This document shows positions 6,554 through 30,215 of a stretch of DNA of 61,252 nucleotides, in pieces. Below the pieces are notes generated by a model. It was not told the origin of the DNA. It saw nothing but the letters and a program-made list of their open reading frames with translations, and did not search any database. Origin of the DNA: an uncultured Candidatus Saccharibacteria bacterium (GTDB taxonomy: Bacteria > Patescibacteriota > Minisyncoccia > Phycocordibacterales > PALSA-1337). The position numbers and the translations under genes were made by a program. The stretch spans positions 1 to 61,252 of the forward strand of contig CAYHLX010000005.1 of the NCBI GenBank assembly GCA_964357605.1. Reading direction: 5' to 3'. How positions within the stretch are numbered: the first letter of the stretch is position 1; every line of letters begins with the position of its first letter.

Positions 6554-6619
6554 ATTTTTCTTATTAGAAATGATAATTAAATACAGCTAAATAGTAGCAC
6601 TTTCCTATGTCTTGTAAAC

Positions 6620-7432
6620 CTACTTGAGCAAAGTATGTTTTCTATCGCTAATGGCTGATTTTCCAGTTTTTTCTTCAAGTTTTTTACGAGCGGCGTGAGC
6701 CACACTTCCACCTTCTCTTGCAACCTTACGATTTCCTTCTAGACTAGAAGGTTTTTCCACCTTTGAAATTTCCGTGTTGGAAGTTTCAGCTAGCATGTTT
6801 AAGACAATTTCAAGGTTTGTCATATTATCGCGAAGATTTTCCTGTTTCAAACCTTTATGCTTTTTGTAATCTTTCGTAGTCATACCTGCCCAAGCAAAAG
6901 TTATTTCGTCAGTAAGCAAAGCATACTCGAGAGGATTTTTTATTCCTCTTTCATTCCATTCATCAGTCAATTCTTTCCTGATCTCTATACTCTTCAAGCG
7001 CTGATTTATCCACTCTTTCGTATATCCTTTCTTGAGGTAAGTATTCAAAGCTCTTTGTATCGCAAGTTCTGGATTATGAGCTTCTTCTACCCTTTCATAC
7101 CCCACCCTAGCAAGCCAGAGCTTAAATGGTTCGGCATTTGGAGAGGGAATTGATTGTATAATACGGAATACAGTTTCGGTGTCAGTTACATCGGTCAGAT
7201 AATATTTACCATCAGAAGCCTCCATTTTCAGTTGTCCGATTTTTGCGGACAACTCACTTCCCTCGTCTTTAAGCCTCCTTTTTAAATCGTCCCAATACTT
7301 TCTTGGCCTATCACTTTGAGATAGAGCTTCTACCACATCCACCACAGAAAAATACCATTTCTCGAATTTTTCATCCCAAATTTTTCGTATTTTCTTACCT
7401 TCAAAAGTAGAGATAGAGTTCAACATTAACAA
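6620..7432 (-). CDS. Bro-N domain / DNA-damage-inducible protein D-like
   Basis: 270 aa; N-terminal FEGKKIR...WYFSVVDVV Bro-N-like segment; C-terminal DinD-like NLRDNMTNLEIVLNMLAE...AREGGSVA. Confidence 0.6.
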   Translation of the reverse strand: MLMLNSISTFEGKKIRKIWDEKFEKWYFSVVDVVEALSQSDRPRKYWDDLKRRLKDEGSELSAKIGQLKMEASDGKYYLTDVTDTETVFRIIQSIPSPNAEPFKLWLARVGYERVEEAHNPELAIQRALNTYLKKGYTKEWINQRLKSIEIRKELTDEWNERGIKNPLEYALLTDEITFAWAGMTTKDYKKHKGLKQENLRDNMTNLEIVLNMLAETSNTEISKVEKPSSLEGNRKVAREGGSVAHAARKKLEEKTGKSAISDRKHTLLK

Positions 7433-7490
7433 AATTCTACACCTGTTTTTATTTTTTACTAGTTACAGAAACTTAGATTTTATGTCGTAT

Positions 7491-7994
7491 TTATTTTTTA
7501 TAAACGTCCTTTAGTAATTCCCTAAATTCTTTTTGAATTTTCTCTAACTTTGGATTAATCACAATTTCACAATATGGATTACCTGGATTATTGGCAAAAT
7601 AATCTTTATGATAATCTTCGGCTTCATCAAACTTGTCTAGTAGTACGACTTCGGTTACTATCGGTTTTCCTTCTTTATTTGAATCATTGATCTCTTTGAT
7701 CATCTCTTCAGCCACTTTCTTTTGCTCTGGAGTGGTATAGAAAATAACAGAACGATATTGAGTCCCTACATCATTTCCCTGACGGTTAAGCGTAGTTGGA
7801 TCATGAGAACCAAAGAAAACCGTGACGAGAGACCTGAAATTTATCATGGTTGGATCATATTCAATACGAACGCATTCGGCTTGTTCTGAATACCCAGGTA
7901 CGATTGAAACCACTCCTTTGAGCATTTTAAAAACGGCTTCAGTACACCAGAAACACCCGCCTCCAAATATTGCGATTTCAGTTTTCATGGTCAA
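7491..7994 (-). CDS. msrA: peptide-methionine (S)-S-oxide reductase
   Basis: 167 aa; GGGCFWCTEAVF active site. Confidence 0.95.
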   Translation of the reverse strand: MTMKTEIAIFGGGCFWCTEAVFKMLKGVVSIVPGYSEQAECVRIEYDPTMINFRSLVTVFFGSHDPTTLNRQGNDVGTQYRSVIFYTTPEQKKVAEEMIKEINDSNKEGKPIVTEVVLLDKFDEAEDYHKDYFANNPGNPYCEIVINPKLEKIQKEFRELLKDVYKK

Positions 7995-8015
7995 AATTAT
8001 AACACTTTTCTTAAA

Positions 8016-18302: not shown

Positions 18303-18330
18303 GCTGGGGGATGTGGGACGAAGTTGGAAC
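18303..18330 (+). repeat. island repeat copy R1
   Basis: GCTGGGGGATGTGGGACGAAGTTGGAAC; ends 4 nt before the stop codon of the minus-strand NUDIX gene. Confidence 0.9.
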
Positions 18331-18334
18331 TACT

Positions 18335-18835
18335 TTAACCAAGCCTCGGCAATAATTCCAAGCCACGCTCGACGAAACGATCGCCTATCTTACCCCAATT
18401 TATATACTTCCTATAATCGGCAGGATCAATCATCTTCACTTCAGTTATGATACCACCAGCCGGATCAGCCACAAATTCACCGTACGGCCTGACGAGACAT
18501 ACATATCGGAGCTGGTACGAAAATCCCTGACCGGGTTTACTACCCCTCTGATATCCGACTGGCAAATATGATAGGACCTCCATGTTGGATTCTTCCCGCA
18601 CCTCTCTCTTTAGAGCCTCCTCGGGAGTCTCACCAATCTCTAGCCGTCCACCCGGGAACCCCCACTCTCTATCTTTGCCGCCAAAATGGCCAAACACGAT
18701 GACAAGCTTACGGTCGCAAAAACAAATTCCATAACTCTGCTTAACGTGTTCCTTATCTAGGTCAACGAAACTATCTGCATCCGTATATTCGAATGTTACT
18801 TGTGGATCATTATTAAACTGTTCAATTATTTGCAT
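18335..18835 (-). CDS. NUDIX hydrolase
   Basis: 166 aa; Nudix box GGRLEIGETPEEALKREVREESN. Confidence 0.85.
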   Translation of the reverse strand: MQIIEQFNNDPQVTFEYTDADSFVDLDKEHVKQSYGICFCDRKLVIVFGHFGGKDREWGFPGGRLEIGETPEEALKREVREESNMEVLSYLPVGYQRGSKPGQGFSYQLRYVCLVRPYGEFVADPAGGIITEVKMIDPADYRKYINWGKIGDRFVERGLELLPRLG

Positions 18836-18928
18836 ATAAATTGCCGCGAGTCTTAGACGATGTTAGAACCTCATTAATAAGCATTTCTGACCTCAACTGG
18901 TTCAGGATTGTTAAGGCGTGGTAAGCCG

Positions 18929-19567
18929 TTAACTGATGATATTCCGAGCCAAACCACTATAGCGGTCCGCAAGTCCTTCGTAGATAAGCATTTTCAATGG
19001 CTCGTAGTCCCACTGCTTATCTATCTGCTTCAAAGCGTCGAGATACCTATTTTTGTTTTCACGTTCAATTTTTATAGAAATACCAACCAAGCCGTACCTT
19101 TCCAAAATGAGATTTGCCGCCAACCTTGCCGTCCTACCATTACCTTCACGAAATGGATGAACATGTGTAATTTTGTGATGTATCCAAGCAGTCGTCTCCA
19201 CTACTGCATCAAGCTGTTTCATTTGCTCGTCAGTCGGGTCAGTGTTTTCCATAAAGAGACCTTCGAGAGTTTTAAGACCAGAAAGTCGCTTTATAAACTC
19301 AACATTCGCCTCATTCATATGCTTTGCAACTTCCGAGTGGTGGGGTGGTAGATGTGATGAGTCAGTAATTTTCAGATTTTCTGTTCGCCACTGACCTGCA
19401 ATTTCAGGCCATGCGTCTTTGAAAATAACCTCATGAATTTTTCGAATGGTCCCAGTATCTATTACGTCTTTGGAATGTGCATACTTTCTAACAAAACGAG
19501 AGGCTCGGATAACGCCGATTGCCTCTCGTTTCTGTAGCTCTGCCTCATCTCCAGGACGTGTTGCCAT
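18929..19567 (-). CDS. Fic/DOC family protein (putative AMPylating toxin)
   Basis: 212 aa; canonical Fic motif HPFREGNGRTARL. Confidence 0.9.
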   Translation of the reverse strand: MATRPGDEAELQKREAIGVIRASRFVRKYAHSKDVIDTGTIRKIHEVIFKDAWPEIAGQWRTENLKITDSSHLPPHHSEVAKHMNEANVEFIKRLSGLKTLEGLFMENTDPTDEQMKQLDAVVETTAWIHHKITHVHPFREGNGRTARLAANLILERYGLVGISIKIERENKNRYLDALKQIDKQWDYEPLKMLIYEGLADRYSGLARNIIS

Positions 19568-19571
19568 GTAG

Positions 19572-19769
19572 TTACGCCTTTACGCTTTCAGCTAGCTTCT
19601 CAAATTCTGTTCGGTCGATTTTGCTTCCTTCTAAAGCACTAGAGTAGTATGCATGCTCAACATCCAAGGCGGTTTCAACCTTGCGTTTTTCTTGTGGACT
19701 CATGAGGTTAATCGCCTTGCGAGCGTCTCGGCCAGAGAGTATTACTTTGTTTATAAGAGTGTTTTTCAT
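19572..19769 (-). CDS. Fic inhibitory antitoxin-like protein (class I, VbhA-like)
   Basis: 65 aa; contains the S-x-x-x-E-G inhibitory helix motif (SSALEG); stop is 4 nt before the Fic start. Confidence 0.65.
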   Translation of the reverse strand: MKNTLINKVILSGRDARKAINLMSPQEKRKVETALDVEHAYYSSALEGSKIDRTEFEKLAESVKA

Positions 19770-19787
19770 GGCGTTCTATGTAGTTTC

Positions 19788-19815
19788 AGTATAGACGAAA
19801 ATGACCAATTGTCAA
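19788..19815 (-). promoter_or_regulatory. sigma70-like promoter for the antitoxin-Fic operon
   Basis: Minus-sense TTGACA - 16 nt - TATACT, about 20 nt upstream of the antitoxin ATG. Confidence 0.5.
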
Positions 19816-19852
19816 TTACAATTTCTCGAGACTTTGATATAATACAGCTATC

Positions 19853-19896
19853 GAAAAGGGTGCCGAACGGTTAACTACCTAAGGATCACCCTTTTC
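19853..19896 (-). terminator. hairpin terminator after the 122-aa gene
   Basis: 10-bp stem GAAAAGGGTG/CACCCTTTTC starting 3 nt after the stop; U-rich 3' side in minus sense. Confidence 0.5.
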
Positions 19897-19899
19897 TTT

Positions 19900-20268
19900 T
19901 TATTTACATATTTGAAGAATTATTTGGATTAGCCCTACCACAGCTCCAATAATGATAGCCGCGATTGCGATTTTCTCTGCACGTCTACCTGTTTTCTCTG
20001 CTTCCTTTAAGTTTAGATACTCGATGGCTGCTGATGTGCCTTTTGATGTAATTACAAAAAGGTGCGAGTCTTTCTCTGAGTTATAACTCAAATGATCAAT
20101 CAGATTTTCACTCGCAGGCATATTTGATCGGAAGATTTTCTGAACCCACTCTATTTGTTCAGGGGTTAAATTAAATTCTTTTGTTAAATCACCCCAACTG
20201 AAGCCAGCCTCTTGCCTGTTATATGTCCAAATTAATATTTTTATATACAAAGTATCTTGAGTTTCCAT
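19900..20268 (-). CDS. hypothetical protein with C-terminal TM anchor
   Basis: 122 aa; C-terminal IAIAAIIIGAVVGLIQIILQI helix; no recognised domain. Confidence 0.5.
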   Translation of the reverse strand: METQDTLYIKILIWTYNRQEAGFSWGDLTKEFNLTPEQIEWVQKIFRSNMPASENLIDHLSYNSEKDSHLFVITSKGTSAAIEYLNLKEAEKTGRRAEKIAIAAIIIGAVVGLIQIILQICK

Positions 20269-20437
20269 GTTCGTTCTGTTACCCCATTTCGGGGAGGGCC
20301 GAAGCCGTTGTGCTGCTAGTATACCAGAATAGTTTAGGTCAATAAAAACTTCCGTGAGGAAAAATCTTTAACCATATGATTACACCTCGACAACGAGAAA
20401 GTGACCAGATCTTGAGATAGATGTATAATCAATTTGG

Positions 20438-20458
20438 GTGTTTGTGGGGGTGAGGGAG
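20438..20458 (+). repeat. partial/degenerate copy of the island repeat
   Basis: GTGTTTGTGGGGGTGAGGGAG matches the first two thirds of R2 (with its upstream TGTT) at about 17 of 20 positions, same orientation; the 3' third is unrelated. Confidence 0.4.
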
Positions 20459-20528
20459 AGCACTTCCCAAGATTCTCGTTGCTGTGACGATGTGCATAAA
20501 CCAGCGTAAAACGAGCATCCCCACAAGC
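20440..20528 (+). ncRNA. candidate structured 5' leader (three-way junction) upstream of a NUDIX gene
   Basis: P1 20440-20449/20519-20528 (10 bp, one G-U); hairpin GGGAG-AGCA-CTTCC; long hairpin CTCGTT-GCTG...CAGC-AACGAG; TGTATAAT -10 at 20422-20429. Confidence 0.3.
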
Positions 20529-20544
20529 ATCTAATTAATTTTTT

Positions 20545-20955
20545 ATGAATTCAGATATTATTTTAAAAGCTGGCGGTATTATCATTAAGGATAAGAAGTT
20601 TGCACTTGAAAGGCATGGGGGTAAAGATGTCTATATTCTTCCAGGTGGAAAATTGGAACACGGTGAATCATTCGAGCAGGCACTCATACGCGAACTTATG
20701 GAAGAATTTGGAATTGAAGTTTTGATTAAAGATATTGAAAAGATTGGAGACTTCGAATCTCGGGCCGTACATATTCCAGATAAAAGAGTAAAAGTAACAG
20801 CTTTCATTGTTAAGAAATGGAAAAATGAAATTGTACTTGATGATGGTTTGGAAGAAATTCTCTGGGTGAATACTTTAAATATCAATGAATTCAAAGTAAG
20901 TCCAATTGTAAAAGAAATATTCCCACTACTAGTGAGCCGTGGTTTAATTGATTAA
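20545..20955 (+). CDS. NUDIX hydrolase (MutT-like)
   Basis: 136 aa; Nudix box GGKLEHGESFEQALIRELMEEFG. Confidence 0.85.
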   Translation: MNSDIILKAGGIIIKDKKFALERHGGKDVYILPGGKLEHGESFEQALIRELMEEFGIEVLIKDIEKIGDFESRAVHIPDKRVKVTAFIVKKWKNEIVLDDGLEEILWVNTLNINEFKVSPIVKEIFPLLVSRGLID

Positions 20956-20966
20956 CTCATTATGTT

Positions 20967-20993
20967 GCTGGGGGTGTGGGACGAAGTTGGAAC
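20967..20993 (+). repeat. island repeat copy R2
   Basis: GCTGGGGGTGTGGGACGAAGTTGGAAC; 19 nt before the stop of the 531-aa gene. Confidence 0.9.
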
Positions 20994-21012
20994 CTCTATT
21001 ACATACAATAAT

Positions 21013-22608
21013 CTAAAAAATACGTAGAAACCAAGATTTCATGTTTGTCCAAAAAGATTGTTTTTTCACTGGAATATTTGGCGTGACGATAGTTGAGTCT
21101 TCAGTAGGTGTGGTCGCTGATACTTTTTTCGTAGTTGATACTTTTTTTATTGACTCTATTTTTGGTTTAATTTTTACGTTATATTCATCCAAAATCTTAT
21201 CTGTTTGATCTTGAGTCAATTTATTTCGAATTAATGGCTTAATTTTATTTTTAAAATCAGAATCACCTTTATATGGAAATAGGAGCTGATCTCTTGTAAG
21301 ACCGGAAAGTTCAGACATAAGTGCAATTATTTTATTTGTATCACATTGATCTTTGGTATAACCGCAGGAATGGAACTGACTCATTCGTTTCATAAAAGTA
21401 CGCATTCCTTGATCGCCTACCTTCAGATAGAAATTTTTTATCACAATGCCTGTGTGAGTATAAAAATCATTTATATTATCTAGATTACCATTTAACCCTT
21501 CAGCGGGTACATCAAAATCAAAGTTTTTATTATAACGATCCAAAAGTTGTTTTTCAGAAAATCGTTGAAATAGTTCCTGCCAAACCCAAGGCGAACCGTC
21601 CGGACCAGGAGAAATATAATATTCAGTATCACCGAGGTATTTTTCACCCAAGGTCTGTGCCGCAAAAACTGACATTCCTTCGTCAAACCAAGGTGCAAAT
21701 TTTTCCTCTTTATTATAAGTGTTTCTGTAAACTATTGAGTGAGTTATTTCATGGATAATCATCTCACCAAAGGTAATATCACTAGCTTCCGAAGTGAAAT
21801 TAGTGGGATCAATGATAAAGATATTGTCACTTCTTCGAAATGCACCCACTTCAGAAAAGAAATGTCCCTTACCAGAAAAATCAGCCACAATGAGATATAT
21901 ACGATCGAGATCAAAAACTCCTAACATTTGTCGCATCGAATCAGGCAAAAATTTAAGATTACCCGCAATTCGTTTAAGTCTATCGACTTGTGAAGGTTTT
22001 CCAATAATCGTAAACATTCCAACGTCTGATCTAATATAATCAGCCGGTAATGGTTTACGTAAAAAATTTACCTCAATCAGTCCGTTATGCTTATCTGCAT
22101 ATTCAATATGAATTGGATTAACACCTGTATATGTTGGATTACTGCTTATTAGTTCGAGATTTGCAGGATACGAAAGGTCAAGCGCCGGTTTTATGAGAAA
22201 GATCTCATCGAGTACAGGAGAAAAATCATACCCAATAAATACAGGTGAAACAAACGCCGGGGGAACGTTATATTTTACATGCATACTCTGAACCCCCATA
22301 TAATCTTTGTTGAATTTTAGATTATATTTTAAATTCCCTTTACTTGTAACGATTGCTGGACCACTATTATCGTAAGCATTTAAAAATGAATAATTTATTC
22401 CCATGATACCTACATCATTAGGGATAATATAATCAATATTATTATATTGATTCGTATCGAGCGGTAAAGAATGGTCAACCAGGGCACTCAAATCCGCATT
22501 TATTTGACCTGAAATCACTTGGGTAGTCTGGGCATGCGAAATAGAAAATAAAAATACTTGACAACAAATACCTACTAATACCACAAGTACGGTTTTTTTA
22601 TAGTTCAT
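21013..22608 (-). CDS. secreted HExxH zinc-metallopeptidase-like protein
   Basis: 531 aa; signal peptide ending SHAQT; HEITH motif (MIIHEITHSIVY); no other recognised domain. Confidence 0.55.
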   Translation of the reverse strand: MNYKKTVLVVLVGICCQVFLFSISHAQTTQVISGQINADLSALVDHSLPLDTNQYNNIDYIIPNDVGIMGINYSFLNAYDNSGPAIVTSKGNLKYNLKFNKDYMGVQSMHVKYNVPPAFVSPVFIGYDFSPVLDEIFLIKPALDLSYPANLELISSNPTYTGVNPIHIEYADKHNGLIEVNFLRKPLPADYIRSDVGMFTIIGKPSQVDRLKRIAGNLKFLPDSMRQMLGVFDLDRIYLIVADFSGKGHFFSEVGAFRRSDNIFIIDPTNFTSEASDITFGEMIIHEITHSIVYRNTYNKEEKFAPWFDEGMSVFAAQTLGEKYLGDTEYYISPGPDGSPWVWQELFQRFSEKQLLDRYNKNFDFDVPAEGLNGNLDNINDFYTHTGIVIKNFYLKVGDQGMRTFMKRMSQFHSCGYTKDQCDTNKIIALMSELSGLTRDQLLFPYKGDSDFKNKIKPLIRNKLTQDQTDKILDEYNVKIKPKIESIKKVSTTKKVSATTPTEDSTIVTPNIPVKKQSFWTNMKSWFLRIF

Positions 22609-22705
22609 AGCAAATACTAACTAAATGATTACCAAAACTATATCATAAACATATCCTGACACATAACCTAGTTATCAACCGTTCCTTTGAATAAAAATAT
22701 CATTA

Positions 22706-22732
22706 GCTGGGGATGTGGGACGAGGTTGGAAC
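22706..22732 (+). repeat. island repeat copy R3
   Basis: GCTGGGGATGTGGGACGAGGTTGGAAC; 55 nt before the stop of the 390-aa gene. Confidence 0.9.
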
Positions 22733-22787
22733 CTTTTTACAGCATACATTATTAGATTAGCAGGAAGACAAAGATTGCGCTGTTTTA

Positions 22788-23960
22788 CTAATAACAAGAG
22801 ACGGTATAGTAGCCACGAGCACCACTCATTGGACCCATAGTACAATTAGTCGTCTTTGGGATTTGAATTTGAGGATACATAACGGGTTGATAAGTAGACA
22901 CGGAGTTATTTTGACTAGCATTTTTATATGCATTTATTTGTGGTAAATAATATGCGTCTAACGCTTGAGTCATTTTTGCCATTGCTTCTGACATTTCCAA
23001 CTGATTCTTTTCTGTTTTAGATACAAAGTCATTGTAAATCTTTGTAATTACCGTTTTATTTTGTTCGATATTATCACCGTGTTTTTTTAATTTATTAAAT
23101 TGAGCCAAATACTGTTCCGCACTCACAGATCCAGAAAGTGACCTGTCATTTTTTTCCTTTCGTAGCGCCACAATCACATTCTCTTGATCATTGACGGCCA
23201 TAGTAAATGTGTCTCTGTAGGTATTATTAGTCTTAATCGCTGTATCCACGTATGCAGAAATGAACAAATCCATGGCTTGTGTAAGATGTGATGGAAGTGT
23301 TCCTCCATCTCTAGCAGCTATAGCTAATGACCTTGCTTTCTCGAAATTAGCTCCGTAAAAATCAGTTGATTTTCTCATTTCATTGAAGTAATTTTTATTC
23401 GCTTCTAAACCACTTATCAGGACATCAATGTAATTATCCAAACCTGATAGATTTAGATCTTTATTCGAAGCTGAGGTAGTATCGGATTCAAAGGTTGTCT
23501 CTATTTGAGTCGTTTGATTTGCCTCTGTGGGCTTCTCCGACAAGATTGATTTGTTTATAAAACCCTTTAGACCATTTGAGGTCATGTGCTCTAACCATTC
23601 TGGTAAATCGGCTAATTTATATGTCACTTCTCCTTGTACCGTAATTTCTGTATTTTTATGATGATAGTACCCAATGACATCGCAACCTGTAGTAGAAGCA
23701 CAAGCTCTAATTCTTACATTATCGTACTTAGTATAAAATTTAGTAATTATCGGAGTTGTCGTTGGAGTATTCAATTTACTCTCAAGCTCTTGTATTCTTT
23801 TCTCTAATACCTCAGTCTTTGTATCAGCCTTATGAAAAATACCCCATGTAAAAGGATTCCACCACGCTGCAAACGTAACCTGAGGAACGATAAAGATGGC
23901 TAAGATTATAACGAATATGAATTTTTGGGGAAACTTATTCATAAGATTATTATAAGGCAT
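22788..23960 (-). CDS. secreted/anchored protein with coiled coil and SH3b-like segment
   Basis: 390 aa; N-terminal TM/signal; VRIRACASTTGCDVIGYY...GFINKSIL resembles SH3b (weak); C-terminal Cys pair. Confidence 0.45.
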   Translation of the reverse strand: MPYNNLMNKFPQKFIFVIILAIFIVPQVTFAAWWNPFTWGIFHKADTKTEVLEKRIQELESKLNTPTTTPIITKFYTKYDNVRIRACASTTGCDVIGYYHHKNTEITVQGEVTYKLADLPEWLEHMTSNGLKGFINKSILSEKPTEANQTTQIETTFESDTTSASNKDLNLSGLDNYIDVLISGLEANKNYFNEMRKSTDFYGANFEKARSLAIAARDGGTLPSHLTQAMDLFISAYVDTAIKTNNTYRDTFTMAVNDQENVIVALRKEKNDRSLSGSVSAEQYLAQFNKLKKHGDNIEQNKTVITKIYNDFVSKTEKNQLEMSEAMAKMTQALDAYYLPQINAYKNASQNNSVSTYQPVMYPQIQIPKTTNCTMGPMSGARGYYTVSCY

Positions 23961-24020
23961 TATATCAATAAAATAACAACAAGACGATACCTTTCGAAGG
24001 CAGTAACTTATCTCGGATTA

Positions 24021-24047
24021 ATTGGGGGTGTGGGACGAGGTTGGAAC
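24021..24047 (+). repeat. island repeat copy R4
   Basis: ATTGGGGGTGTGGGACGAGGTTGGAAC (first two bases diverge); 17 nt before the stop of the 118-aa gene. Confidence 0.85.
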
Positions 24048-24064
24048 TTACACTCCTTCACAAA

Positions 24065-24421
24065 TTAACTATTAAACACCTTTTCAAGAAAATTAACATT
24101 GAGTATAACTAGATCCATTATGATCTCGTTAATAATAAAATAAAAAATCGCATATGTTAAACTGAGAGATAATAAATATATCAGACTGCCTCTAACGTTT
24201 TTATTGAATACCCAAAATAATAATGTATTCACTTTTAAAAACGTAAATACATATAGAACTGTGGAGTTCACTAAACTAAATATTGATGTATAAACACTCG
24301 GGTAAAAATAGCTTAGGTACATACTTAGACCAGTTATCACTAGGATTTCCGTAAACTTGATCCACTCTGAAATTATCGTGTTAGTTTTTTTACTGTTTAA
24401 TATTTCTTGAAGTCTTTCCAT
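24065..24421 (-). CDS. small integral membrane protein
   Basis: 118 aa; 3-4 hydrophobic helices; no recognised domain. Confidence 0.5.
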   Translation of the reverse strand: MERLQEILNSKKTNTIISEWIKFTEILVITGLSMYLSYFYPSVYTSIFSLVNSTVLYVFTFLKVNTLLFWVFNKNVRGSLIYLLSLSLTYAIFYFIINEIIMDLVILNVNFLEKVFNS

Positions 24422-24445
24422 ATTTTATTACGAACTAATTTGCTA

Positions 24446-24471
24446 GCTGGGGTGTGGGACGAAATTGGAAC
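24446..24471 (+). repeat. island repeat copy R5
   Basis: GCTGGGGTGTGGGACGAAATTGGAAC; 7 nt before the stop of the 96-aa gene. Confidence 0.9.
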
Positions 24472-24478
24472 TAGTTTA

Positions 24479-24769
24479 TTAACGATGTGATCCAAACCAA
24501 TCCCATGCTTGTTTAGGTAACCATCCTTGCTGATTTTTTGGATTTACTTCCATTATAATAATGTGCCTGCTACCAGTATGTTTTATTAAAACGTTATAAA
24601 GTTGGTTTACTTCGTATACAGATTCAACAAAATATAAACCTCCAGGTATATAGTGCCACCACGTCGTTATCCAACCAACTTTATACATGGATTTAATATA
24701 ATTATGAAACAAACCCAAATCAAATGGGAGTGTCGTATCTGGCATAATCATGTAAATTTTATTAGTCAT
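24479..24769 (-). CDS. hypothetical protein (W/Y-rich, 96 aa)
   Basis: ORF overlaps the upstream gene by 8 nt (operon arrangement); no recognised domain. Confidence 0.5.
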   Translation of the reverse strand: MTNKIYMIMPDTTLPFDLGLFHNYIKSMYKVGWITTWWHYIPGGLYFVESVYEVNQLYNVLIKHTGSRHIIIMEVNPKNQQGWLPKQAWDWFGSHR

Positions 24770-25184
24770 TGTTTCCTTCTAAAGATTTAGGCGGTATTTC
24801 AGGAGTTTCTGTCTTTTTTGGACTTGCTAGTGCTGGATTATTTTCACTTACAATTTTTTGAATTTCTGTGAATGTATGTCCTTGATCACCTATAACTTCT
24901 AACGCCTTCATACGATAAATCTGATCTTCTGATTGAAGGTCCTTATGATCTCCAAAAAGCAATATTCCCAAAAAAGTCAATATAAAAACCAAGAATAATG
25001 CTCCAATTATAAACATTAGAAATATTATCGCTGTCATGTTTCCAGTAAGAACAATTAATATAAATGTACCGAGCAGATATGGTGCAATAAATAAAATAGA
25101 ACTAAATACACTACTAATACGTATTTGTTTGACCATCTCCGAAGCAGATTTTATGGGGTCAAATGTTGGTTTCATAAAATACAC
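24762..25184 (-). CDS. membrane protein (2 TM helices) with charged C-terminal tail
   Basis: 140 aa; starts 2 nt after the stop of the upstream 267-aa gene. Confidence 0.5.
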   Translation of the reverse strand: MYFMKPTFDPIKSASEMVKQIRISSVFSSILFIAPYLLGTFILIVLTGNMTAIIFLMFIIGALFLVFILTFLGILLFGDHKDLQSEDQIYRMKALEVIGDQGHTFTEIQKIVSENNPALASPKKTETPEIPPKSLEGNND

Positions 25185-25186
25185 AA

Positions 25187-25990
25187 TTACTGAGGAATGC
25201 AGGAGTTATCAACTTCTCTATATCCGCTATTACAATACCAGTTTGAACCGTAAACATATGAGTTTTGGGGATTCATGATTTTTTCACAAGAGTTACCGAC
25301 TTCTTTGTATCCAGAGTTACAATACCAGTTGGATCCGTATACATAAGAATTTGGTGGACTCATAATTTGCTGACATGTATTTCCAACTTCCTTATATCCA
25401 GAATTGCAATACCAATTTGAACCATACACGTAAGAATTTGCAGGATTTATTACTTTTTCACACGAGTTGCCAACTTCTTTGTATCCACTATTACAATACC
25501 AGCTGGACCCATACACATATGAATTCGCGGGAGCAATAATTTTTTCACAACCGCTTCCCACTTGTTTGTATCCTGAATTACAATACCAACTTGAGCCATA
25601 AACGTAGGCGTTTGCTGGAGCTGTTACTTGAGTCTTAACAGAGTTAGTCCTCACAGAAGAACCAGACGATCCTGATTCATACAAAGCCTTTCCTTCATAA
25701 TAGTTTGGATCTGTTATATATGTTGGTGTATCCCAAGTTGTTCCTCTTGTACCATATGTTTTGTTGTATAATCCTTGGCTAGGTGTGTAACTATAGTTAT
25801 CATACTTCAAACCATTTGGGTTACTCCTAACATAAGGAGCAACATAAGTACCATTTTTCCTGTAATATCCCTCAACACTCACATAAGCATCAGCGTGATT
25901 AAAAACTCCAATAGAAACAAACAACACGATTAGAATCAGGGAAAACTTGAGATATTTTTTTAGAGTGTTCATAATGCCTAGACTATACAA
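25187..25990 (-). CDS. secreted cysteine-repeat protein (5 x 29-aa modules)
   Basis: 267 aa; signal peptide ending HADA; five tandem modules P-A-N-S-Y-V-Y-G-S-x-W-Y-C-N-S-G-Y-K-E-V-G-N-x-C. Confidence 0.65.
   Translation of the reverse strand: MYSLGIMNTLKKYLKFSLILIVLFVSIGVFNHADAYVSVEGYYRKNGTYVAPYVRSNPNGLKYDNYSYTPSQGLYNKTYGTRGTTWDTPTYITDPNYYEGKALYESGSSGSSVRTNSVKTQVTAPANAYVYGSSWYCNSGYKQVGSGCEKIIAPANSYVYGSSWYCNSGYKEVGNSCEKVINPANSYVYGSNWYCNSGYKEVGNTCQQIMSPPNSYVYGSNWYCNSGYKEVGNSCEKIMNPQNSYVYGSNWYCNSGYREVDNSCIPQ
25190..25621 (-). repeat. 87-bp tandem coding repeat, 5 copies
   Basis: Encodes residues 124-267 of the 267-aa protein; copies differ at a few positions (S/N, K/R, E/Q). Confidence 0.8.
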
Positions 25991-26019
25991 TAATTTCTTT
26001 ACTTTTACAATAAGAAGAT

Positions 26020-26943
26020 GTGGTGTATCCTACGTTCATGAAAGATCTTATAGATGGTCTAAATACTCGCTACAACATTTGTGCTCAAACGACATCTGAG
26101 AGAGAGTTTTATTTACTCCTTTACTATTATTTTGACTATATTATAAAAACACCTGAATTACACTCAGTCTTTGAACAAAGTGAACATGAATATCATCAAG
26201 CTCACGGGAAACTATGGTCTAAACCACGTTTAACTGATGAAGAAGCTGATATCGCTGAAGCAAAAACAATAAAACTTGAGAAGTTTAATTTGTTTTCGGT
26301 TGGTGCTTGGATACATGGAAGAATATATCTTCCAGTTGATGATTATAGAAATACTGACGACCCAGATTATAGACAAGATCCTGTTGCTGTAATTTTATTA
26401 AAAGGATATGACTATACAAAAACTTTACAATGGAGATTTCCAGAAATAACAGAAAGACTTAGGGTCTTAAATAGATGGTTTGAAGGCAAAAGAGATAGAT
26501 ACGAAAAAGATTTACGCCAGTTTCATTTAATGTTTTTAGATGAACTGGATAAAATTAAAGTTGGAGAAAAGCCTCTTGTAAGCATAGAAAAAAACTATTC
26601 TACCCCTTTCTCTTTTAATGAACGTACTGGTGATTTTACTTTTTTAAAGACTAAGGGAAATATTTCCCCCGGGAGTCAGGAGTACAAGGTTTTTATTACT
26701 TTATACAATGGAAATGAATACATGGCTGAATATTTAGATATTCTAAAATCAATTTCTCCAAATATCGAGTCAGTTACTAAAGTTAATAAGGCTACTTTGC
26801 ACACCATAATTAGAAACGTAAAAGAAAAACTTGGAATCCTACCAGAGACTGAGGCATCAAATCCAGATATAATAAGAAACATACCAAAATTAGGATATCG
26901 CCTTGTTTTTGAACATATAAATCAGAGAGCAGAACAAGCCTAG
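26020..26943 (+). CDS. OmpR/PhoB-type winged-helix DNA-binding protein (no receiver domain)
   Basis: 307 aa; C-terminal LHTIIRNVKEKLG...IRNIPKLGYRLVF matches the trans_reg_C pattern; GTG start at 26020 or ATG at 26038. Confidence 0.55.
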   Translation: MVYPTFMKDLIDGLNTRYNICAQTTSEREFYLLLYYYFDYIIKTPELHSVFEQSEHEYHQAHGKLWSKPRLTDEEADIAEAKTIKLEKFNLFSVGAWIHGRIYLPVDDYRNTDDPDYRQDPVAVILLKGYDYTKTLQWRFPEITERLRVLNRWFEGKRDRYEKDLRQFHLMFLDELDKIKVGEKPLVSIEKNYSTPFSFNERTGDFTFLKTKGNISPGSQEYKVFITLYNGNEYMAEYLDILKSISPNIESVTKVNKATLHTIIRNVKEKLGILPETEASNPDIIRNIPKLGYRLVFEHINQRAEQA

Positions 26944-26984
26944 AACTTTTCCATACCATTCAAATCAATAAAAAGTAAAAATGA

Positions 26985-27009
26985 CCTCGTTGACTGCGAG
27001 GATTTTTTT
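26985..27009 (+). terminator. intrinsic terminator
   Basis: CCTCG-TTGACTG-CGAGG hairpin followed by ATTTTTTT. Confidence 0.6.
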
Positions 27010-27258
27010 ATGTCTTTCAAATTCAGTCAAAAACTCATAGATGAGACGATCAAGTGTTTTCATGAAGAAAACGGTATTGAGCTGTCTCCTGAATTAACTA
27101 ACGAGTATTTGGAATCATTCGCACGGTTGTATTTAGCCTTCGCACGAAAGACTCTGATTAAGAAGTTCGAGGTTTGCGAGCGGAGCGACCCTGCGCTTAA
27201 GCGCGGGAGCGACGCGCACCCTGACTTGATATCCCCTCACAATTGTAAAGATGAATAA
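27010..27258 (+). CDS. hypothetical protein (82 aa); 3' part may instead be a non-coding origin region
   Basis: ORF only; the 3' third is an atypical GC-rich repeat/palindrome block. Confidence 0.35.
   Translation: MSFKFSQKLIDETIKCFHEENGIELSPELTNEYLESFARLYLAFARKTLIKKFEVCERSDPALKRGSDAHPDLISPHNCKDE
27177..27223 (+). promoter_or_regulatory. candidate rolling-circle origin (palindrome flanked by direct repeats)
   Basis: Near-perfect palindrome CCTGCGCTT|AAGCGCGGG flanked by GAGCGAC and ACCCTG direct repeats, about 40 nt upstream of the Rep start. Confidence 0.3.
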
Positions 27259-27260
27259 TT

Positions 27261-27992
27261 ATGTATTTTGTTTACAAAAAATATGGTGAAATTGTCGAGA
27301 TCACACAAATCGAAAAAGAAATCACGAGGAAAGTACGTGTATACTTTAAGAGAAGAAGGAATAATATATACCCCTCTAGGAGACCCGATAATATTCGAAG
27401 GACACGGCAAATATGTGTGCGGAGGGTGCTTTCTGCTCTTGAAGAATATGGATGTCCGCTTCTGGTCACACTCACCTTTGCGGGAGATGCATCCGATGCC
27501 TCCTATGCAAATGATTCCTTACGCGCATTCCAAGTGCGGTTGCGAACTCAATATTCTTCTGCTCAATCCATCTTTATACCCGAACTATCCCCAAGAGGGA
27601 GAATCCATTTTCATGGCTTACTCTTTAACGTGCCGATGTCTCTCGGAGATACGCGCAAAGGTAAACGGACTTTTTCGTATGGAGATGAGAGGAAAACTCG
27701 CATACTCGCCAAACTCTGGGGAGAGGGATACGTGGATGCAACAGCAACTAACGGCTCTGGACGCTTGGCTTATTATATAAGCAAGTATATTACGAAAGGT
27801 GCTGGAGAAATTCTTTTTAATGCGATGAGAATGCTAAGAATATCACATGGCTTTCCAAAAGAAGAAGTCGTGCGTGGCAAGATGGCGGAAAAACTTGCCA
27901 AGAGTTATGATAAGAAGAAGCCAATCAGGGAGTGGTCTAAACCCAATATCTTTCTCGGAAAAATCACCAAAAAAACTTATTTACTAAAATGA
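27261..27992 (+). CDS. HUH rolling-circle replication initiator (pC194 Rep_1 / Microviridae VP4-like)
   Basis: 243 aa; motif 1 LLVTLTF, motif 2 RIHFHGLLF (HUH), motif 3 YYISKYITK (catalytic Tyr). Confidence 0.7.
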   Translation: MYFVYKKYGEIVEITQIEKEITRKVRVYFKRRRNNIYPSRRPDNIRRTRQICVRRVLSALEEYGCPLLVTLTFAGDASDASYANDSLRAFQVRLRTQYSSAQSIFIPELSPRGRIHFHGLLFNVPMSLGDTRKGKRTFSYGDERKTRILAKLWGEGYVDATATNGSGRLAYYISKYITKGAGEILFNAMRMLRISHGFPKEEVVRGKMAEKLAKSYDKKKPIREWSKPNIFLGKITKKTYLLK

Positions 27993-29467
27993 AATACATC
28001 ATCTACTGCCGTAAATCTACTGATACCGAGGATAAACAGGTTCTTTCTCTTGATTCCCAAGAAAACGAGCTTACAAGACTTGCTAAGGTCAGTGGTCTGG
28101 AAGTCGTTTCTATACTTCGGGAAAGTAAGTCTGCCAAATCACCCGATCGCCCCATCTTCAATGAGATGATTAAAATGATCACTTCTGGTAAAGCTGACTC
28201 TATCCTCTGCTGGAAAATTGACCGTCTAACACGCAATCCGATTGATGGCGGACAAATCCAATGGCTTCTACAGAACAATAAGATCAGATGCATCAGAACC
28301 TTTGAGAAAAGTTATTACCCGAATGACAATGTTTTGATTATGAGCATTGAGCAAGCGATGGCCAATCAGTACATCCGAGACCTAAGCACCAATGTGAAGC
28401 GTGGCAATCGAGAAAAGCTATCACGAGGTGAGTGGCCTAATCATGCTCCCTTCGGCTATCTCAACGATAAAGCTACTAAATCTATCGTTATTGATCCAAT
28501 TCGCTCAAAATATATTCCCAGAATGTTTGAACTCTATCTTACAGGCTCTCATGGCACCAAAAGTATCTCTGAAACCCTTTATCAAGAAGGATTACGCACC
28601 AGAACAGATAAAAAAGTTTTAAAAGGCCATATCCATAGAATTCTCTCTTCCGTTTTCTATACTGGCCTCATGGAGCGAGAAGGAAAATATTACGAAGGTA
28701 AACACCAACCTTTGATCTCAAAAGAGACCTTTGAAAAAGCTCGAGACGTCATGCACGGACGAATACACCCACGTACACAAAAATTATTCTTTCCACTTAG
28801 AGGGTTCTTAAAGTGTGAGAATTGCGGTTGCGCCTTGACTGCCTCACTCAAAAAAGGACATCAATATTATTATTGCACGGGAAACCGAGAGAACTGCGAG
28901 GAACATATAAACTATATGCGTGAGAATTACCTTTATGAGAAAATTTCCCTCATTTTTGATGATCTTCATTTCTCCGAACGGAAAATTGAGATTATGTACC
29001 AAGCGGCCAAAGAAAGACTGGAGTTTGATAATGACTATAGCGAGAAAGTCCTATCTACCCTCCATTTACAGCTAGAATCCCTTAAAACGAAAGAATCTAC
29101 ACTTCTTGATACTTTCCTTGCTGAACAGATTACGAAAGAATTATACGACGCTAAAGTACTGGCTTTGCACAATGAGCGAGTTTCATTTACCAAACAGATC
29201 AAAGAAGCAAAAGCACGACAACCAGCTTGCGTGTTGGAACCGACTAAAAAAGTATTTCTAGAAGCCAGTAGAGCCAAAAAAGAGTTTTTAGCTGGTAATG
29301 ATTTGAAAAAAAGAAATATCCTAGAAAATCTCTGTTGGAACCTTTCTGTAAAAGATAAAAATATTCAGATTGTTAGCCTTAAAAGTCCTTTCAACCTAAT
29401 GCTCAAAGCACCCAAAAACGGAGATATTTCAACTCTGCTGCGGGGGTTGGAATCGGACCAACATTAG
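27989..29467 (+). CDS. large serine recombinase (integrase)
   Basis: 492 aa; N-terminal resolvase domain (YCRKSTDTEDKQVLSLDSQ, catalytic Ser); recombinase domain; CENCGC...YYC zinc ribbon; coiled coil. ATGA overlap with rep; last 10 codons lie inside tRNA-Gln. Confidence 0.9.
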   Translation: MKYIIYCRKSTDTEDKQVLSLDSQENELTRLAKVSGLEVVSILRESKSAKSPDRPIFNEMIKMITSGKADSILCWKIDRLTRNPIDGGQIQWLLQNNKIRCIRTFEKSYYPNDNVLIMSIEQAMANQYIRDLSTNVKRGNREKLSRGEWPNHAPFGYLNDKATKSIVIDPIRSKYIPRMFELYLTGSHGTKSISETLYQEGLRTRTDKKVLKGHIHRILSSVFYTGLMEREGKYYEGKHQPLISKETFEKARDVMHGRIHPRTQKLFFPLRGFLKCENCGCALTASLKKGHQYYYCTGNRENCEEHINYMRENYLYEKISLIFDDLHFSERKIEIMYQAAKERLEFDNDYSEKVLSTLHLQLESLKTKESTLLDTFLAEQITKELYDAKVLALHNERVSFTKQIKEAKARQPACVLEPTKKVFLEASRAKKEFLAGNDLKKRNILENLCWNLSVKDKNIQIVSLKSPFNLMLKAPKNGDISTLLRGLESDQH

Positions 29468-29508
29468 AAGCTTCAAAGGCTCCTGTCCTGCCATTAGACG
29501 ACCCCGCA
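29438..29508 (-). tRNA. tRNA-Gln (UUG)
   Basis: Hand-folded cloverleaf: acceptor UGCGGGG/CCCCGCA, D stem GUCU/GGAC, anticodon loop CUUUGAA, T stem GUUGG/CCAAC, discriminator G; T-loop UCCGAUU is atypical; no encoded CCA. Confidence 0.8.
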
Positions 29509-29534: not shown

Positions 29535-30215
29535 TTACATTAGAGGACTAAGATATAGTACTACACCCTCTATCCATCCTGCAATCTTTCTATTTAATGG
29601 AATACTCCCTAAAACTGTTATCTTGAGGACTCCATAGTAGTTAGTTCCAATATTTTTTCTGTTCGTTTTTGGGTTATGTCTTTTATAATAGATCTTTAGT
29701 CTTTTCACTTCAAAATTTAAACCATCTGACCAATATTTTTTTGCTAATTCAACATCGCCAGTAGGATGGATGTAGAGTGCATAGCTAAGTTGGGTATCTA
29801 AAATCTCCAAATACTTTCTTGCCCACCCAATAAATATTTTATGAATATTAAGATCCATATTTGCTATCTGAACACTGGAAGGGGCCTTACGTTCTTTTGA
29901 TCCCTCACCCCAATACAAAATTACACCGGTAAGCCAGAAAGGATCTTTAGCCAGCTTCGGGACCTCAAGTCTTGCACCATATTTAATATCTTCCACTCTC
30001 TTGATTTTATTATTCCTTATGACATGTATGGCTCTCAATCTAGCAGCTATTTTCTTCTCCGTAATCCTCTGTTTTTGATGTACACTCAAGCCAACCTCTC
30101 TTAACCATAATGAGAGAGTTGATTTTGCAACAGGAACTTGCCCGAGTATTTCTGAATACGTTTGTCCCCTTTTTCTCAACTCTATTGCTTTCTTTTTTAA
30201 ATCAAATTTATTCAT
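29535..30215 (-). CDS. HTH protein with possible LAGLIDADG-like core
   Basis: 226 aa; N-terminal HTH (QTYSEILGQVPVAKSTLSLWLR); GVILYWGEGSK loosely resembles a LAGLIDADG motif (weak). Confidence 0.35.
   Translation of the reverse strand: MNKFDLKKKAIELRKRGQTYSEILGQVPVAKSTLSLWLREVGLSVHQKQRITEKKIAARLRAIHVIRNNKIKRVEDIKYGARLEVPKLAKDPFWLTGVILYWGEGSKERKAPSSVQIANMDLNIHKIFIGWARKYLEILDTQLSYALYIHPTGDVELAKKYWSDGLNFEVKRLKIYYKRHNPKTNRKNIGTNYYGVLKITVLGSIPLNRKIAGWIEGVVLYLSPLM

Follow-up and report, generated by a model that had tools for sequence, protein, structure and literature searches.

Co-oriented repeats behind a tRNA-Gln gene as probable half-sites of a serine recombinase element of Patescibacteria

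What are the five short repeats that punctuate a run of co-directional genes in an uncultured Candidatus Saccharibacteria bacterium, and what placed them there? They lie between positions 18303 and 24471 of contig CAYHLX010000005.1 (assembly GCA_964357605.1), of which a stretch of 61,252 nt was analysed (hereafter the window). The window belongs to a low-GC Patescibacteria genome, its best protein matches being to Candidatus Taylorbacteria and other Parcubacteria. An earlier note, made from the sequence alone, had described a cassette-like array lacking an integron integrase and had put forward three explanations: recombination sites used by a non-integron recombinase, scars of serial integration, or an RNA element of the 3′ untranslated region. 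From comparison with related loci we think it probable that the repeats are the element-side (P-type) half-site of elements spread across the candidate phyla radiation (CPR), which carry a large serine recombinase (LSR) and a rolling-circle replication initiator (Rep) and insert at the 3′ ends of tRNA genes. The short units of the array would carry the same junction, stacked by accretion.

An exact pattern search of the 61 kb returned five full copies, R1 (18303–18330), R2 (20967–20993), R3 (22706–22732), R4 (24021–24047) and R5 (24446–24471), all on the plus strand as written and read here on the minus strand. Coordinates, sequences and strand are those reported in the earlier note, and almost no copies would be expected by chance: shuffled sequence gives 0.00 matches to the 24-nt pattern and 0.03 to the 19-nt core. 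No further full copy was found on either strand of the window, and none lies beyond R1 toward lower coordinates as far as position 1; the five are packed into 6 kb and the other 55 kb has none. In the minus-strand reading each copy consists of a 19-nt core, GTTCCAACTTCGTCCCACA, followed by a tail of about 8 nt. R5 is an exact match, its core forming the putative 19-nt P-arm (GTTCCAATTTCGTCCCACA) ahead of the tail CCCCAGC; the tail of R4 is degenerate (CCCCCAAT). Two more minus-strand sites are possible decayed copies, as judged from their alignment. The first, at 18843–18869 and absent from the earlier note, is a weak match located between the stop of a Fic gene (18929) and the start of a NUDIX gene (18835). 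It agrees with the motif at 19 of 27 ungapped positions, the top background score in the window, and at 14 of 19 in the core, and is in register with the other copies. The second answers to a partial copy that had been placed at 20438: a gapped local alignment (TGGGGGTGAGGGA-GAG against TGGGGGTGTGGGACGA) was found at 20444–20465, where the match is weak and contains indels, and we retain it as a possible copy only.

The repeats do not resemble the more familiar kinds. Folding of 66–68 nt around each of the five copies revealed no structure beyond that of shuffled sequences (z −0.76 to +0.50), no terminator-like site was present at any copy in the window, and a promoter and terminator scan of the array performed no better than shuffles. 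An Rfam search over 17–26 kb, run with a permissive threshold, had no hit at any copy. The absence of dyad symmetry stated in the earlier note is thus upheld, and with it the view that these are neither attC-type hairpins nor intrinsic terminators. The same holds for a CRISPR array, which was rejected on the grounds that the spacing (0.4–2.7 kb) is coding and that no CRISPR repeat family is found at the copies (cas genes were not searched for). A solitary CRISPR repeat was also considered and discarded; in one other locus (L008) two copies lie 38 nt apart, with no array. Repetitive extragenic palindromic elements were rejected together with intrinsic terminators: there is no palindrome, the copies are clustered in 6 kb, and in other loci, wherever the sequence extends far enough to tell (49 copies), they lie downstream of a same-strand tRNA. 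The earlier note had allowed that the motif might be scattered genome-wide after housekeeping genes. It is instead confined, per genome, to tRNA-linked islands and follows accessory genes.

The exact core occurs in 52 loci of a collection of species-representative genomes and in 105 metagenome loci, 157 in total (individual loci are given below by L numbers). The hosts are almost all Patescibacteria of many classes, including Saccharibacteria, Parcubacteria lineages, Moranbacteria, Magasanikbacteria, Gracilibacteria and Doudnabacteria. No exact copy was present in the IMG/VR viral contigs, and the literature searched held no mention of the motif sequence or of LSR elements at CPR tRNA genes. 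When the copies are aligned the core is invariant and its outer edge sharp, while the inner 8 nt vary between genomes and are uniform within one. An extra A, 6 nt outside the core (position −6 relative to GTTCC), is found in 88% of 145 distinct copies, and positions −5 to −2 on the same scale are A-rich. The conserved site is about 33 nt, longer than the 27 nt of the earlier note. Coding constraint was rejected as the cause of the conservation, as the frame in which the LSR ORF would cross the 19-mer is not the same in the window as in L139. We note that in L007 and L015 a segment further downstream can pair with the tail and the 6 nt next to it, which supply the 5′ strand of a 14-bp hairpin (CCCCAGCTAACAC ... 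GTGTTAGCTTGGGG); other copies did not show this.

A tRNA-Gln(UUG) gene (ARAGORN; 29437–29508, minus strand) lies upstream of the array on the same strand, with R5 4965 nt downstream of its 3′ end. Where enough upstream sequence was present to show it, a same-strand tRNA was found upstream of 49 motif copies (43 distinct motif–tRNA pairs) in the geometry of the window. These tRNAs are mostly Gln, with Pro, Asp, Ser and Ile also represented, and the tail changes with them: Gln loci have ..CAGC or ..CAAC, Pro loci ..CCCGAC, Asp loci ..CCCGC or ..CTCGC, Ser loci CTCTCCGC and Ile loci GGGCGGACCA. In L082 the end of tRNA-Ile and the tail agree at 10 of 10 positions (both GGGCGGACCA), in L049 the end of tRNA-Ser and the tail both read CTCTCCGC, and in L051 the tRNA-Pro end ..GCCCGAC faces the tail ATCCCGAC. 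Over the last four positions the identity of a tail to its own tRNA is 0.86–0.91, against 0.31–0.80 to tRNAs of the same type from other loci. Elsewhere in the site, identity to the local tRNA is 0.6–0.7 at −6/−5 and 0.6–0.84 at −15 to −12 (TCCC), and near zero at −24 to −17. The site is not a plain tRNA 3′ fragment, a candidate that was rejected: the 19-mer cannot be threaded on tRNA numbering and stays invariant while local T-arms vary, and only the tail and TCCC are tRNA-like. The islands have the marks of accretion, namely insertion at a tRNA, an att-core repeat at the unit boundaries and direct orientation throughout. The earlier note was right about the copies and the array; it had missed the mimicry of a tRNA 3′ end by the variable left 7–9 nt, the same-strand tRNA-Gln upstream, and the spread of the motif across the CPR.

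The interval between tRNA-Gln and R5 is occupied by an element of around 5 kb (24446–29436, or 24.45–29.44 kb). Abutting the tRNA is the LSR gene (27989–29467, plus strand), which encodes 492 residues with the Pfam domains PF00239 (Resolvase), PF07508 (Recombinase) and PF13408 (Zn_ribbon_recom); the protein matches a PHROG integrase family (E = 2e-79) and, in the PDB, the SPbeta integrase. Its reading frame enters tRNA-Gln antisense by 31 nt (29437–29467), and homologues with 44–59% identity are found at the same position in other loci. Next to it is the Rep gene (27261–27992, plus strand), of the REP_ORF2-G2P family. Two conserved element genes on the same strand encode a 307-aa protein (within 26020–27258) and an 82-aa protein (27010–27258), the latter with homologues in L005, L013, L016, L043, L052, L075, L091, L112, L114 and L135. 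The cargo (24479–25990, minus strand) comprises a 267-aa secreted Cys-rich repeat protein, a 140-aa membrane protein and a 96-aa protein, a homologue of which directly precedes a motif copy in L124. At least four tandem Cys-containing repeats (NSYVYGSxWYCNSGYKEVGNxC) are seen in the 267-aa protein (25187–25990, minus strand), which gives a weak match to EGF_MSP1_1. At the tRNA-proximal end a putative P′ arm (AGAGTTGAAATATCTCCGTTTTTGGGTGC...; 29401–29436, minus strand) overlaps the last LSR codons on the other strand; its pattern, TTG..AAAT..TTTTTGG/TTTTTAGG, is weakly conserved in eight elements, equally far from the tRNA end in each.

We also observed that the LSR of the window would end differently in its two states, as ..STLLRGLESDQH when integrated and, in the predicted excised circle, as ..STLLGCGTKLELVY after reading through the tail and the 19-mer. 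An antisense LSR end within the tRNA is also found in L016, L052, L091, L075, L167 and L168. Such a state-dependent C-terminus could provide a switch from one state to the other, integrated or free.

Elements of this type, 5–7.5 kb long and lying between a tRNA and the motif, were found in at least nine complete loci as well as in truncated ones. The complete architecture (tRNA, LSR and Rep, cargo, motif) is present in the window, L052, L016, L075, L091, L114, L167 and L168/169. In the first six of these the tRNA–motif interval is 5.0–7.5 kb and the LSR identity 44–52%. The order of parts recurs: an antisense LSR reaching 31–67 nt into the tRNA, a gene for 240–290 aa, the gene for the 82-aa protein, cargo in the orientation of the tRNA and, at the end, the motif. 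L005, L034, L112 and L106 are contig-cut or truncated examples, and L166 is cut in the tRNA at the contig end. A reverse test was made by starting from LSR homologues. The family is a large one, with 2999 of 8000 scored candidates reaching E ≤ 1e-60, and three of three independent loci (L166, L167, L168/169) carry the motif with no more than two mismatches, on the predicted strand and 5.3–6.8 kb from the LSR, whose 3′ end abuts a tRNA in each case. Because complete elements elsewhere end at the motif and the reverse test agrees, R5 is, on these comparisons, the distal (attR-type) junction of the resident 5-kb element. The earlier note had drawn attention to the LSR at 27989–29467 as the only recombinase, and it appears to be the relevant partner of the motif.

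No terminal overlap that would reveal a free circular form was found in L112 or L139. L166 and L167, both Logan contigs, are integrated copies that break at att sites: the contigs end in or just past the tRNA on one side, and on the other they extend beyond the motif by 11 nt in L166 and 130 nt in L167. These ends may reflect graph branching, arising from presence and absence of the element or from circular and integrated forms that coexist.

Comparison of related loci shows where the junctions lie. The empty site in L037 reads tRNA-Gln followed by TTTGCATAGAAAA. In the occupied site of L091, attL reads tRNA|TTTGCATACAAAT and leads into the LSR element, and 7.5 kb further on attR reads ..CCTCAAC|TTTGCATAGAAAA. 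These junctions place the crossover within the shared core CAACTTTGCATA, at or just after the tRNA end. L030 and L048 share 99% identity as far as the final base of the tail (..CAGCCA) and are unrelated directly after it; L066 and L077 differ from L122 in the cargo carried on the same motif and flank; and L094 differs from L040 by a 1.27-kb block whose limits are the tRNA-Gln end and a CAGCCA tail. The earlier note had proposed that breakpoints in related tRNA loci should be compared with the motif, and in these several cases the break falls exactly at the motif or its tail. The closest relative available, L164 (dnaX 84% identical), is syntenic with the window over 10 kb up to dnaX and has nothing in common with it after tRNA-Gln, its island consisting of other genes and one degenerate motif. 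With that island wholly different, and with L165 ending at dnaX, unit-by-unit comparison with the closest dnaX relatives is impossible. Nor do NUDIX homologues help: those with 73–83% identity in relatives occur in unrelated contexts, with neither motif nor tRNA, so that the gene is not always a cassette and is uninformative on boundaries.

Some other occupants of these tRNA ends were noticed in the course of the comparison. The insertion in L094 (1085–2356) has no recognisable 19-mer and encodes a 190-aa open reading frame (ORF) with a DSGA motif, retropepsin-like by eye only; either the same tRNA end may serve more than one kind of unit or the arm may have decayed fully. An 85-nt hairpin block (ATCCCGATTACTATCGGGA) repeats at its end the final 11 nt of tRNA-Gln, and a gene for a small GIY-YIG nuclease comes next. 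The block is found at 176–260 and 2567–2655 of L037 (oriented) and also in L005 and L091, directly after the tRNA and directly after the motif. Taken with its nuclease gene, it has the appearance of a distinct mini-element that exploits the same tRNA end. Between dnaX and tRNA-Gln the window encodes a 226-aa protein (29535–30215, minus strand) without a Pfam match; a homologue (46% identical) occupies the same position in L050, where L164 has a PemK toxin.

How would such a site be read? We propose that each repeat is a recombination half-site, made of the 19-nt arm GTTCCAACTTCGTCCCACA and about 8 nt that mimic the 3′ strand of the tRNA acceptor and its end. The tRNA-Gln gene would be the integration target, its sequence from the T-loop through the 3′ end serving as the B-type half-site. 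After insertion the order is the tRNA, the element with its LSR reading back into the tRNA, the arm and tail at the far end, and then the former flank. Measured from its end, the tRNA has GTTCGAA (the T-loop) at −22 to −16 and TCCC at −15 to −12; the motif has GTTCCAA at −27 to −21 and TCCC at −15 to −12. The outer motif is thus displaced outward by 5 bp and the inner one is in register. In the LI integrase of the Listeria A118 type the zinc-ribbon domain binds positions 16–24 of the attP half-site and 11–19 of attB, with the recombinase domain in the same register in both (PMC3783163). The 5-bp outer shift seen here would correspond to this attP/attB register shift of serine integrases. The LSR would then recognise the tRNA through its universal T-loop and its own site through a T-loop look-alike, with crossover at or within a few bp of the tRNA end. 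If this register holds, the arm would be near-invariant across distant hosts because it copies a universal feature of tRNA, and exchange of the inner 8 nt would suffice for retargeting to another tRNA. Joining of the R5 arm and tail to AGAGTTGAAATATC would give the circular attP of the 5-kb element, and the site left by excision would be the tRNA-Gln end joined to TAGCAAATTAG. In most of eight elements a CCAA/CTAA-like motif with CG or TG 3–4 nt later is present in both arms, roughly equally distant from the tRNA end.

A number of observations weigh against this account. The window tails (CCCCAGC) differ from the end of the resident tRNA-Gln (CCCGCAGC), and the conserved outer A makes the arm longer than a textbook 25-bp half-site. 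Conservation of P′ is ambiguous because it overlaps sequence coding for the LSR C-terminus (a PKN motif), and the starts of the short units of the window contain no conserved P′-like sequence. Known serine integrases require both half-sites and recombine strictly attP with attB (PMC3783163). Since the canonical enzymes need P′/B′ and spurn attL/attR, reuse of an occupied tRNA would call for relaxed recognition of the right half or for another route. Three replicate assemblies of this population, from Hainich H41 groundwater (ERZ1292619, ERZ1292624 and ERZ1292625), have an invariant array, 99.95–100% identical, and give no sign of current activity here. The link between LSR and motif rests on association and geometry, and no recombination has been observed. 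Finally, all full-length elements inspected have a Rep-size gene at a constant position, with Rep homology detected in only some of them, which means that co-occurrence cannot tell LSR from Rep as the reader of the 19-mer.

Another explanation is that the 19-mer is, perhaps in addition, the nick or termination signal of Rep. Replication would start at one copy and stop at the next, and the resulting single-stranded circle would then be integrated by the LSR. Besides the constant neighbourhood of LSR and Rep-size gene, one-sided conservation and direct repeats are reminiscent of rolling-circle origin and terminator signals, and GTTCCAA occurs in the gpII-binding repeats of the f1 origin. We know of no nick-site consensus for the REP_ORF2-G2P family. 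A gene of similar size stands at the Rep position in six further full-length elements, and in three (L052, L114, L034) no Rep homology was detected. The arm, however, keeps a fixed distance from a tail that mimics tRNA, and TCCC keeps the tRNA register, both of which point to a recombinase; no hairpin surrounds the site, and arrays exist in loci without Rep. We regard a Rep signal as improbable.

The position of the copies relative to genes had suggested a quite different role. In the window, read on the minus strand, each full copy lies shortly after the stop codon of the upstream minus-strand ORF, at distances of 4, 19, 55, 17 and 7 nt for R1 to R5, exactly as the earlier note gave them, and elsewhere the stop codon lies a median of 17 nt before the site. 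The mRNA-sense copy is C-rich, and an element common to the 3′ untranslated regions of accessory-gene mRNAs (a rut site, a processing site or a stabiliser) could be imagined. Against it, the tail co-varies with the upstream tRNA and not with the gene, the motif marks the far end of LSR elements, synteny breaks exactly at the motif, neither structure nor an Rfam family is associated with it, and the gene beyond R2 is convergent. Tight packing of the co-oriented cargo genes accounts for the short distance to stop codons. An RNA element is very unlikely, and this proposal of the earlier note is not supported. Its two others, sites of a non-integron recombinase and scars of serial integration, each fit part of the evidence: the motif is the distal junction of LSR and Rep elements, and breaks fall at the motif. 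Either may apply to R4 to R1.

We turn to these short units, all on the minus strand. R4 ends a one-gene unit encoding a 118-aa membrane protein (24065–24421), R3 a one-gene unit encoding a 390-aa secreted protein (22788–23960) and R2 another encoding a 531-aa secreted peptidase-MA-like protein (21013–22608). The block between R2 and R1 (18331–20966) is more complex and holds a NUDIX gene (20545–20955, plus strand), a 122-aa protein, a 65-aa protein with a Fic protein, and a second NUDIX gene (18335–18835) that adjoins R1. If the decayed copies are real this block is possibly three units. R1 is the last copy and is followed by DUF2231 and further genes. Homology searches of the R4–R1 units found no fragment of LSR or Rep, and their first bases are mutually unrelated. 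As a side observation, the 212-aa protein with a Fic/DOC domain is preceded by the 65-aa ORF (18929–19769, minus strand), a small ORF without a Pfam match; from position only, the two are a possible toxin–antitoxin pair.

In other loci such arrays are common when one to four mismatches are tolerated. They reach ten copies (L031), with seven in L080, six in L097 and five in L059. Copies are spaced at a median of 681 nt (interquartile range 495–1114), mostly with one ORF per unit. A co-oriented ORF ends no more than 60 nt upstream of 107 of 163 copies, and the median distance from the site to the start of the next ORF is 44 nt. Among copies with 15–18 of the 19 core positions (one to four mismatches), 86 lie on the same strand as the exact copy and one on the opposite strand. 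The cargo is accessory and includes NUDIX, HAD, isochorismatase, methyltransferase, GNAT-like and exonuclease-like proteins, reverse transcriptases, toxin–antitoxin systems and secreted or membrane proteins. The description of the units as cassette-like stands: in the window as in L031, L097, L080 and L059 they are short, mostly of one ORF, and each is closed by the motif. In L031, L047, L080 and L097 we noticed many units that open with a sigma-70-like promoter 3–4 nt after the tail (e.g. aaaTTGACAcac..17..TATAAG); by these consensus matches, units may carry their own promoters. A further side observation concerns L059 (oriented), where 6339–8000, between tRNA-Gln and the five-copy array, encodes a 553-aa fusion, identified by eye, of a reverse transcriptase (YADD) and a trypsin-like protease. 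It looks like a defence-type reverse transcriptase.

Our proposal for R4 to R1, and for the possible decayed copies, is that they are the same junction as R5, the units having been stacked behind tRNA-Gln by serial site-specific insertion. The short units would depend on the LSR element as non-autonomous partners and could be compared with cis-mobilizable elements or with integron cassettes. Two versions of this history can be distinguished. One is integron-like: single-ORF cassette circles would be individually mobile and inserted by the LSR in trans at a reusable tRNA end, only their left half-sites being read. The long arrays, mostly one small ORF per unit and tightly packed, agree with this, as does the accessory cargo usual for cassettes. 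No LSR was detected in any of 27 intervals shorter than 2.4 kb between a tRNA and the first exact motif, and it was present in seven of ten longer than 4.5 kb (in one of these, L106, it is truncated and does not abut the tRNA). The interval lengths leave a gap at 2.4–4.7 kb, with a degenerate copy in L059 located 3.6 kb from the tRNA. Conservation is limited to the left half-sites. L032 has two tandem copies of a 910-nt unit, both opening with the sequence that follows the tRNA. A Lloydbacteria locus and a Parcubacteria locus have one cassette gene in common (84% nucleotide identity), which begins 9 and 56 nt beyond a tail. Set against this are the lack of any observed circular cassette junction, the invariance of the window array in replicate assemblies, the very few units common to different loci, the requirement of known serine integrases for both half-sites in a strict attP × attB reaction (PMC3783163), and the many array copies with one to four mismatches, which are possibly decaying. 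We hold individual mobility to be possible, short of probable.

The other version sees relics: LSR and Rep elements integrated serially at tRNA-Gln would have lost their recombination and replication modules by deletion and would move, if at all, only as passengers when a neighbouring element excises through a distal junction. Truncated LSR genes stand beside motifs in L106, L105, L039 and L143, and in L139 the C-terminal portion of a further LSR gene comes directly after the motif. The motif decays by degrees, the two possible decayed copies of the window included, and the window array is stable in replicate assemblies. Accretion and decay of this kind are documented for tandem tRNA islands (PMC5704250; 10.1101/2020.12.28.424599). 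Random deletion should, however, leave intermediate sizes and LSR or Rep pseudogenes, and in the arrays inspected in detail the units are 0.3–3.1 kb long, mostly with one or two intact ORFs, and contain no detected LSR or Rep fragment. Such regularity is hard to obtain by random deletion of 5–7 kb elements and favours defined non-autonomous units. The truncated LSRs, graded decay, invariant array, scarcity of common units and lack of attL/attR reuse weigh in the opposite direction and leave the two versions close; descent from larger elements is a serious possibility, to which we give somewhat less than an even chance.

It is instructive to place the system beside known ones. It shares with serine integrases such as A118/LI and SPbeta SprA the domain composition, hybrid junctions, 5-bp outer shift and a short identical crossover core. 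Here, in contrast, the target is the 3′ end of a tRNA, apparently through the universal T-loop; the element arm is near-invariant at phylum-level diversity and the inner 8 nt switch with tRNA type; and the site is reiterated behind the tRNA, where it closes recombinase-less units that have no conserved right half-site. The tycheposons of Prochlorococcus are likewise small cargo elements with integration and replication modules at tRNA genes, and in their islands repeated integration displaces older material, so that partial att repeats and degenerated elements are scattered (10.1101/2020.12.28.424599). The boundary repeat described here differs in being a dedicated 19-nt arm with a 4–8 nt tRNA-like tail, and not merely a partial tRNA. 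Mostly single-gene units in regular arrays, CPR hosts, a serine recombinase and a rolling-circle Rep are further differences. Streptococcal cis-mobilizable elements (CIMEs), which accrete with integrative conjugative (ICE) and integrative mobilizable (IME) elements, likewise line up recombinase-less, att-bearing units in tandem with an autonomous element at a target gene's 3′ end, and cis-mobilisation of the composite of a CIME with an ICE or IME is possible (PMC5704250). The relic version of the history given above would correspond to CIME-like remnants or to island growth of the tycheposon type. In the present case there are no conjugation genes, the units are far smaller and more numerous, the integrase is of the serine and not the tyrosine type, and the element arm is conserved across Patescibacteria classes.

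The likeness to integrons, and to clusters of attC sites lacking an integron integrase (CALINs), lies in co-oriented, mostly single-ORF arrays that end in a site, in accessory cargo, in the frequent absence of a nearby recombinase and, for integrons, in a recombinase module that diverges from the array. The site itself is different, being 27–33 nt long and one-sided, with no attC hairpin at any of the five copies (z in the range given above), and entry is at a tRNA 3′ end instead of attI. Many units have a promoter-like sequence after the preceding tail, another difference, as far as consensus matches go. Neither IntI nor any other tyrosine recombinase was found among the proteins scanned at 17.2–31.3 kb. 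Fragmented integrase genes between repeats are present in L106, L105, L039 and L143 and absent from the four short units of the window and from the long arrays. It appears that tRNA-targeted integrative elements with accreted arrays are the known kind to which this system belongs, and that a conserved one-sided site and an integron-like layout across the CPR are what is unusual. More speculatively, and with more doubt than confidence, the CPR may possess an integron-like cassette system that is mechanistically unrelated to integrons, with single-ORF cassettes bearing one-sided sites of 27–33 nt (a T-loop mimic and a tRNA-end mimic), an LSR that acts in trans from a small LSR and Rep element and inserts them singly at the 3′ end of a tRNA gene, and a Rep that perhaps copies cassettes out by rolling circle between adjacent sites. 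The tRNA end would remain reusable for entry, and the recombinase would be retargeted through the inner 8 nt alone.

The genomes of CPR bacteria are tiny, few mobile elements are recognised in them, and the exchange of accessory genes among these bacteria is, to our knowledge, largely unexplained. The 19-mer provides a sequence handle for tRNA-linked variable islands and mostly single-gene arrays across the CPR, and ties these islands to a very large family of serine recombinases. If the logic of the site holds, it would represent a natural serine integrase that reads a universal feature of tRNA and is retargeted by a short inner swap, which would be relevant to integrase engineering. If it is true that the short units move individually, the integron principle would have been invented a second time, independently.

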